7,095 nt of DNA. Origin: a virus. Lineage: Duplodnaviria > Heunggongvirae > Uroviricota > Caudoviricetes. Shown in pieces: positions 4,580-5,409 of this stretch. Numbering within the stretch: the stretch's first letter is position 1; each line of letters opens with the position of its first letter. The notes under the pieces are model-generated. The model did no database searches, was not told where the DNA came from, and worked only from the letters and a program-made list of their open reading frames with translations. The stretch lies in the IMG/VR virus record IMGVR_UViG_2734482551_000011. One strand, written 5' to 3'. A program made the translations under genes and the position numbers.

Positions 4580-5409
4580 TCAGAATTTATAACCGACACC
4601 CACGATGAAACCGTCAGTGCGCCAGAGACGTGTTGCTGTGGCGACCGTCATCACTTCCGGNNNNNNNNNNNNNNNNNNNNNNNNNNNNNNNNNNNNNNNN
4701 NNNNNNNNNNNNNNNNNNNNNNNNNNNNNNNNNNNNNNNNNNNNNNNNNNNNNNNNNNNNNNNNNNNNNNNNNNNNNNNNNNNNNNNNNNNNNNNNNNNN
4801 NNNNNNNNNNNNNNNNNNNNNNNNNNNNNNNNNNNNNNNNNNNNNNNNNNNNNNNNNNNNNNNNNNNNNNNNNNNNNNNNNNNNNNNNNNNNNNNNNNNN
4901 NNNNNNNNNNNNNNNNNNNNNNNNNNNNNNNNNNNCAGAGACGTGTTGCTGTGGCGACCGTCATCACTTCCGGTCAGCACGTCGTGCGTTTTCCCCTTGT
5001 TGTCAGTTACGCGGAGATAATCCCCGGAGAAAGTCGACACACGGCTGTAAGCCACACCCGCCATCGCATACGCGCTGAACCATTCATTCACGCGCACAGA
5101 CGGCCCCGCCATCACGCTGAACCAGCGGTTACGCACGGAATCTTCATGCCAGCGGGTATCGCTGTAACGGGTCAGCTGGCGATTCTTGTCTCCTGCATAG
5201 CTGAATGACGTCACCAGCCCCAGCGTATCCGTAAACTCATAACGGTATTTCACGTTAATCCCGTTCAGATCATCACTGCCGGGAACGTTGGTCCGGGCAT
5301 GAAGATACCCCGCGCTCAGCGTGGACTGATGTTCAGACGCCCATGCAGGCGCACCGGATACGGCCAGACAAATGGCTGCGGACAAAATGGCGGCACAAAC
5401 TTTACGCAT
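4580..5409 (-). CDS. lom: Lom (Lom/Ail/PagC-family outer membrane protein), interrupted by an N-run; frame integrity uncertain, possibly a pseudogene or a mis-assembly
   Basis: ATG 5409..5407 with SD GAGAGG upstream. 158 codons (signal-peptide-like MRKVCAAILSAAICLAVSGAPAWA, then ...GINVKYRYEFTD...SVMAGP...AYAMAGVAYSR...GSDDGRHSNTSL) resemble lambda Lom. A Lom-like C-terminus WRTDGFIVGVGYKF with stop at 4582..4580 is present, but in a different frame from the body. The span is 830 nt, not a multiple of 3. Confidence 0.75.
4623..4660. repeat. 38-bp direct repeat, lower copy, abutting the N-run
   Basis: cagagacgtgttgctgtggcgaccgtcatcacttccgg is identical (38/38) to 4936..4973. Confidence 0.95.
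4661..4935. other. N-run (275 nt) inside lom
   Basis: Literal n characters, flanked on both sides by the identical 38-mer. Confidence 0.99.
4936..4973. repeat. 38-bp direct repeat, upper copy, abutting the N-run
   Basis: Identical to 4623..4660. In the lom frame it encodes GSDDGRHSNTSL. Confidence 0.95.

Follow-up and report, generated by a model that had tools for sequence, protein, structure and literature searches.

A lom gene that appears lengthened across a scaffold gap is best read as an unmerged contig overlap over an 83-nt deletion in a Shigella sonnei-type prophage

The gene lom of a 7,095-nucleotide (nt) stretch of viral DNA (IMG/VR record IMGVR_UViG_2734482551_000011; hereafter the window, meaning the whole stretch) is divided by a run of undetermined bases (N) that carries the same 38-mer on each of its edges. 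We conclude, with a probability of about 0.88, that the repeat and the Ns together represent a 38-nt overlap between two contigs that was left unmerged, and that this artefact lies over a genuine lom pseudogene with an 83-nt deletion. The evidence comes from the geometry of the gap, from 20 gap-free sequences of the same locus, each of which carries a single 38-mer and the same deletion junction, and from an intact lom allele against which the lesion becomes visible.

The 38-mer stands at 4623..4660 and again at 4936..4973, with 38/38 positions matching. Both copies abut the 275-N run with zero offset and neither can be extended; the 38-mer has no further occurrence in the window on either strand, and simple arithmetic places the chance expectation for an exact 38-mer repeat in 7 kb at ~1e-16. 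On the minus strand, the frame from the ATG at 5409 runs for 158 codons to 4936 and ends with ...GSDDGRHSNTSL. Read in that frame, the lower copy gives GSDDGRHSNTSLAH and then a TGA at 4616..4614. The C-terminal stretch WRTDGFIVGVGYKF, with its stop at 4582..4580, sits in a different frame, which translates the lower copy as PEVMTVATATRL. On raw coordinates the open reading frame (ORF) at 4651..5409 on the minus strand encodes 252 amino acids (aa) and ends at the TGA 4653..4651, while the lom span of 4580..5409 comes to 830 nt, which is not divisible by 3. The repeat, the frames with their stops, the raw-coordinate TGA and the 830-nt span had all been described in a first-pass annotation made from the letters of the window, and we obtained each of them again by direct comparison, translation, ORF listing and arithmetic. 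The same annotation had judged lom to be roughly 70 codons longer than lambda Lom (206 aa). This excess is present on raw coordinates, but biologically it amounts to the unmerged 38 nt and the 275 Ns; moreover, a more suitable yardstick than lambda Lom is the intact lom of E. coli strain 190 (L001), which encodes 199 aa (600 nt with the stop). With that allele the length bookkeeping is exact: 830 = 600 − 83 + 38 + 275, the last two terms giving 313. The features of the window are collected in Table 1.

Table 1. Positions of the features discussed, in window coordinates, with the basis for each assignment.
Feature	Position	Strand	Basis
lom 5' part, codons 1-158 (signal peptide to ...HSNTSL)	4936..5409	-	translation; Ail_Lom profile positions 1-159/199, 319 bits
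Upper 38-mer copy: first 38 bases of the right contig, at the natural lom position (codons GSDDGRHSNTSL)	4936..4973		same context in intact lom, L001 5201..5238
Scaffold gap, 275 N; no real sequence corresponds	4661..4935		contig mapping onto L023
Lower 38-mer copy: last 38 bases of the left contig, same genomic bases as 4936..4973	4623..4660		single copy in 20/20 gap-free relatives
CGCCAG, 6-nt direct repeat retained at the 83-nt deletion junction	4620..4625		intact alleles: L001 5121..5203 between the copies
Premature TGA two codons past the deletion junction; 160-aa product, ...HSNTSLAH-stop	4614..4616	-	translation; 160-aa genes called in relatives
Out-of-frame lom 3' remnant WRTDGFIVGVGYKF + stop: last beta-strand and C-terminal Phe of the barrel	4580..4624	-	alignment to lambda Lom (PDB 9wso), OmpX
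Terminator-like hairpin + T-run, 3' of lom	4532..4553	-	hairpin scan
Terminator-like hairpin + T-run between J end (stop 5480) and lom start	5440..5457	-	hairpin scan
Second scaffold gap, 278 N, in the side tail-fibre gene	3405..3682		relatives hold 260 nt there
Tail-tip protein J, C-terminal domains	5480..7069	-	Pfam
Ail_Lom	4936..5409	-	Pfam
Prophage tail-fibre N-terminal domain (phage_tail_N)	3683..4521	-	Pfam
Tail-fibre assembly protein (Caudo_TAP)	833..1414	-	Pfam

The comparison set consisted of 20 gap-free sequences of the locus, 10 from IMG/VR (L003-L012) and 10 from NCBI (L023-L032). The IMG/VR contigs were found with a 26-nt junction pattern and the NCBI loci by look-up of the window Tfa protein, and several of the latter lie on 4.7-5.0 Mb contigs; the NCBI loci include the closed chromosome of Shigella sonnei 75/02 (CP019689; PMC5447701) and the closed chromosome CP066810 (PMC8549364). 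Every one of the 20 relatives has exactly one 38-mer, one deletion junction and no insert. The NCBI loci are free of any N, and the isolated single Ns found in four of the IMG/VR loci lie away from lom. Identity between the NCBI loci and window 1..3404 is 99.9-100% (100% in 7/10), with 1 mismatch over 3683..4660 and 7-8 mismatches over 4936..7095. When the two contigs flanking the lom gap are mapped onto L023, window 3683..4660 falls on 4750..3773 and window 4936..7095 on 3810..1651, an overlap of 38 nt; the window minus 313 nt then aligns to this locus ungapped over 3,100 nt, with 8 mismatches and no indel.

The second N-run of the scaffold shows how far N lengths can be trusted. Its 278 Ns stand in place of 260 nt in L001, in L002 and in the 15 close relatives that span the gap, which means that N-run lengths in this scaffold are estimates. 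No flanking overlap like the 38-mer occurs there, and it is a true gap of 260 nt. At lom, the repeat copies are the suffix of the left contig and the prefix of the right contig, and collapse of one copy with the Ns restores colinearity with the gap-free sequences. Because the contigs overlap in the relatives, because the collapse restores colinearity and because N lengths are estimated, we regard the 38-mer pair as one genomic sequence written twice. A scaffolding or overlap artefact was among the options that the first-pass annotation had listed for the repeat, and it is the one borne out by the single copy in all 20 relatives.

We also considered that collapse of the 38-mer might restore an intact gene. 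This was ruled out: a single collapse leaves 517 nt that are frameshifted and stop after ...SLAH, a result that pointed to the deletion. In the intact allele of E. coli strain 190, ...GTGCGCCAG is followed by TCGCC and the remainder of an 83-nt segment that ends in CCACGCCAG, and then by AGACGTGTTGC..., whereas in the left contig of the window ...GTGCGCCAG is joined directly to AGACGTGTTGC...; just past the breakpoint both alleles continue with AGACG (after GTGCGCCAG in the window and after CCACGCCAG in the intact allele). The window thus follows L001 to position 5120 and resumes at 5204 (5198 counting the shared CGCCAG). In the intact allele the short direct repeat CGCCAG stands at both ends of the deleted segment, and one copy is kept in the window. 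Retention of one copy of a direct repeat is the usual signature of replication slippage or of microhomology-mediated deletion. The loss takes out codons 159-186. Since 83 is not a multiple of 3, the frame shifts at the junction and a stop follows two codons on.

The deletion junction is present in 20/20 relatives, 10 IMG/VR contigs and 10 NCBI loci, and in the IMG/VR contigs the junction region is contiguous and without N. A 160-aa Ail_Lom gene has been called at the lom site in four of the NCBI loci (L025, L027, L029 and L032), and the sequence of L023 reads ...HSNTSLAH followed by a stop. Because the same junction recurs in independent gap-free assemblies, including closed chromosomes, the deletion is a real allele, common to all S. 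sonnei sequences examined. Outside this group, a 48-nt probe that seeds only across the junction found no match in 5,426 complete E. coli genomes, and the 26-nt junction pattern found none in 185,579 species-representative genomes (GTDB); the E. coli set lacks it because Shigella is listed under species names of its own. Its absence from the E. coli and GTDB sets had at first favoured a one-off assembly error at the junction, a reading that was dropped once the IMG/VR contigs and the NCBI loci, including closed S. sonnei chromosomes, were found to carry it. The lom of the window is therefore a genuine prophage pseudogene, one already present in closed public S. sonnei genomes and not novel. 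The first-pass annotation was right that lom is not intact, and comparison with an intact lom shows it to be frameshifted by the 83-nt deletion. The actual lesion, the deletion at 4620..4625, is visible only against an intact lom and was missed at that stage. The outcome named there as speaking against an interrupted gene, a resolved sequence with one 38-mer and an uninterrupted Lom-length ORF, is seen in its first half only: the relatives do have one 38-mer, but their lom is a frameshifted gene of 160 aa.

We then consider where the artefact may have come from. The window differs from its S. sonnei relatives at only 8 sites (4288, 4981, 4999, 5016, 5029, 5368, 5392 and 5645), all within 4288..5645 and none in the other ~5.4 kb, a clustering with a chance of ~4e-7. 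The seven that lie in the right contig all agree with the intact lom of E. coli 190, and the 545 nt of 4936..5480 show one mismatch to the same stretch of that strain. The window allele of 4974..5036 is found in at least 120 IMG/VR contigs, beside the intact junction wherever the contig reaches it, and in 20/20 sequences with the deletion the junction is followed by the other allele. One deletion-bearing scaffold, L009, holds a second, intact-type lom as well. Because the window-specific single-nucleotide polymorphisms (SNPs) cluster around lom and match intact alleles, the source genome probably also has an intact lom paralogue in another prophage, which would tangle short-read assembly. The cluster suggests consensus mixing with such a paralogous prophage copy, or gene conversion; the lom body of the right contig may blend both copies in a consensus, may have been extended from the paralogue, or may be the product of a real conversion event. 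As for the single site outside the right contig, the A at 4288 is in none of the relatives checked there (L001, L002, L004, L005, L007 and L011).

We read the window as part of the tail region of a lambdoid prophage, scaffolded from short reads of S. sonnei or a very close relative. Its left contig ends at 4660 and its right contig begins at 4936, with 38 real bases common to both that the scaffolder or gap-closer left unmerged; an over-estimated gap of 275 Ns was placed between overlapping contigs, the true sequence being one 38-mer with no insert. The deleted and intact alleles share 48 nt (CGCCAG + 35 nt + TCAGCAC), bounded by the deletion junction and the SNP at 4981, and this shared stretch may have formed an X-shaped node in the assembly graph with both contig ends inside it. 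A pure de Bruijn k-1 account of the 38-nt overlap was rejected, as the implied k differs by end (42 vs 46), and only the placement of the ends inside the 48-nt node was retained. GapFiller works inwards from the two edges of a gap, which it leaves open when the merged length departs from the estimate by more than 50 nt (PMC3446322). It was applied together with SSPACE to 299 S. sonnei drafts (PMC5320598), although there is no evidence that the window stems from that pipeline.

Several points weigh against this account. The single-copy state of the window's own genome is taken from its relatives and not from reads. The gap was mis-estimated by 313 nt at lom and by only 18 nt at the other N-run, a disparity for which the account offers no detailed reason. 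Neither contig end coincides with an edge of the 48-nt shared node, the two being set 3 and 7 nt within it, which makes a simple de Bruijn model inexact. The difference 278 − 260 = 18 keeps the tail-fibre frame, as if the Ns were one-for-one (a chance of 1/3). The G at 4981 is absent from both lom copies of L009, so the paralogue of the window strain must differ from that of L009, or its lom body would have to be genuinely different. The assembly mechanism stays a proposal.

The alternative that survives best is a variant of the artefact reading and not exclusive of it: the deleted-lom left contig may have been joined to an intact-lom body from another prophage, or to a bubble-popped consensus, giving a false join or mosaic. 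The match of 7/7 right-contig differences to intact-lom alleles points this way, as do the adjacency of the right-contig allele to the intact junction in those at least 120 contigs, wherever they reach it, the pairing of the deletion junction with the other allele in 20/20 and the second, intact-type lom of L009; SSPACE and GapFiller have also been called greedy and prone to false joins by their users (PMC5320598). On the other hand, the 1,450 nt beyond 5645 are 100% identical to J of the deletion-bearing prophage, while in L007 the J paralogues reach only 89-91%. Because of this identity the right contig is not simply foreign; at least its J part comes from the deletion-bearing prophage, and the contig would have to be a mosaic. 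A real gene conversion in the strain would look identical. We hold such a join to be unlikely, though worth keeping in view beside a plain unmerged overlap.

Far less probable is that the Ns stand one-for-one for real bases, which would make the gap a genuine 313-nt tandem duplication, or some other 275-nt insert, in an already deleted lom. The geometry is compatible with it, as a mask shorter than the tandem period would leave identical sequence at both N edges, and the 18 nt by which the other N-run is off are a multiple of 3. However, two indels peculiar to the strain (+313 and +18) would have to fall, each exactly under an N-run, in a window whose remaining ~6.5 kb are indel-free against ten genomes. 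Any junction beneath the Ns is beyond inspection, and the visible one, 4625/4626, is a deletion junction (L001 5120 next to 5204) that 20 duplication-free sequences share exactly; the 38-mer occurs twice in 0 of ~140 gap-free lom-bearing loci. The partial internal duplication offered by the first-pass annotation finds no support here: the one novel junction in view is that of the deletion, and every relative has a single copy. Its other suggestion, an insertion hidden under the Ns, fares no better. An insertion sequence (IS) would leave IS ends at the contig edges, such as the one seen at window 1..83, and would duplicate its target over a few bases where the repeat has 38; the relatives are insert-free, and an IS or other insert was ruled out on these grounds.

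The slightest chance of all attaches to a lom that is intact in the window's genome, with the deletion junction of the left contig as an assembly error: the right contig does have the allele tied elsewhere to intact lom and the junction is in no complete E. coli genome, but the same junction occurs in 20 independent assemblies, including closed long-read chromosomes, with flanks 99.9-100% identical to the window, and from the way k-mer overlap assemblers work they should not be able to jump a 6-nt microhomology (GapFiller overlaps are 29 nt; PMC3446322).

We next evaluated what remains of the lom product. The 160-aa product of the merged sequence matches the Ail_Lom family (PF06316) with 319.1 bits against a cut-off of 23, over profile positions 1-159/199, so its family membership is clear. 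The barrel, by contrast, is incomplete: positions 160-199 of PF06316 are absent, WRTDGFIVGVGYKF is in another frame and translation ends at the TGA 4616..4614. The gene is a pseudogene of the Ail/Lom family, presumably without a functional product. Lambda Lom (PDB 9wso), OmpX and Ail can be aligned with the intact allele over its full length, and the residues of that allele past ...SLAW align with the OmpX end FSYGAGLQFNP...GVGYRF, which we take to be strands 7-8. Outer-membrane barrels need a C-terminal aromatic (Phe) motif for assembly and insertion. Because the last ~40 profile positions and this motif are missing, and with them the two final beta-strands, the 160-aa product most likely cannot form the Lom barrel and is non-functional, as far as can be judged from sequence comparison.

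The gene order J - lom - stf - tfa is that of lambda and is the same in annotated E. coli prophages. Terminator-like hairpins bracket lom, as would suit a separate cassette within the tail operon; a promoter scan of 4400..5600 found no sigma-70-like site, a result that is uninformative. In the side tail-fibre gene, one 1035-aa ORF is listed across the gap, its frame kept by the 18-nt excess, and the gene is mostly called as 1027 aa in the relatives. This gene has internal repeats, window 2879..3404 aligning twice, at an offset, within the homologue from E. coli 190 (L001 3260..3917), and these repeats probably explain the location of the 278-N gap. At the left end, window 1..83 corresponds to the last 83 nt of IS1, with the terminal inverted repeat at 61..83, and closed S. 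sonnei genomes have an IS1 in this position, next to tfa. IS1 thus truncates or flanks the prophage, and the scaffold stops in a repeat of high copy number; IS1 is the usual ending point of short-read Shigella contigs.

Among the IMG/VR relatives, four deleted-lom scaffolds, L007 (Ns at 7274 and 10455), L008, L009 (N at 6838) and L010, are stitched by single Ns and have 2-3 successive copies of lom and/or the 3' part of J, 89-99% identical. Such scaffolds resemble paralogous prophage fragments strung together, and other drafts of this lineage would be unreliable at the locus as well.

The junction at 4609..4634 could be a lineage marker, being present in 20/20 gap-free sequences of the prophage, of which those identified are S. 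sonnei, and in 0/5,426 complete E. coli genomes. As a simple marker, GTGCGCCAGAGACGTG told the S. sonnei sequences examined apart from every complete E. coli genome searched. The deletion was found in every S. sonnei sequence examined; the stronger claim that it is a fixed S. sonnei clonal marker and that loss of Lom was selected (pathoadaptive), and not neutral decay, we consider doubtful.

Taken at face value, the scaffold would give a lom that is 70 codons too long and has an internal repeat, neither of which exists, and annotation or comparative pipelines that read across such gaps would list a duplication or an insertion that is not there. What underlies the scaffold is a decayed S. sonnei prophage whose Lom is truncated and presumably without function, a case of routine Shigella gene decay. 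The finding is an ordinary one, and its value is chiefly as a caution against reading gene structure across scaffold gaps. No paper describing this lom deletion allele was found in our search, and the term 'lom' is absent from the report of the S. sonnei 75/02 chromosome (PMC5447701).

Three known systems place the locus in context. Assembly duplication errors are treated as a class by Kelley & Salzberg 2010 (PMC2864568) and Ko et al. 2022 (PMC9516828). The window shares with false duplications at scaffold gaps the identical sequence flush with the N-run on either side, the colinearity regained on collapse, the location in a multi-copy (prophage) region and an N length unrelated to the real distance. 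In contrast to them, the repeat of the window is only 38 nt long and the organism is a haploid bacterium, so that the likely cause would be paralogous prophage copies and not heterozygous haplotypes. As a gene, the lom of the window resembles lambda Lom and the 8-stranded barrels of the Ail/Lom/OmpX group (PF06316; PDB 9wso, 1qj8 for OmpX and 3qra for Ail) in its place between J and the side tail-fibre gene and in its N-terminal signal peptide. It departs from them in being frameshifted and ending at residue 160, with the stretch of the last two OmpX strands and the terminal ...GYKF missing or out of frame. Shigella genomes have undergone reductive evolution, in which pseudogenes arise by deletions flanked by microhomology; the comparison here is for lom alone. 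The CGCCAG at both deletion ends with one copy kept, the frameshift and the IS1 directly beside the prophage remnant are all features of such decay pseudogenes, and set against them the lom of the window is in no way unusual.
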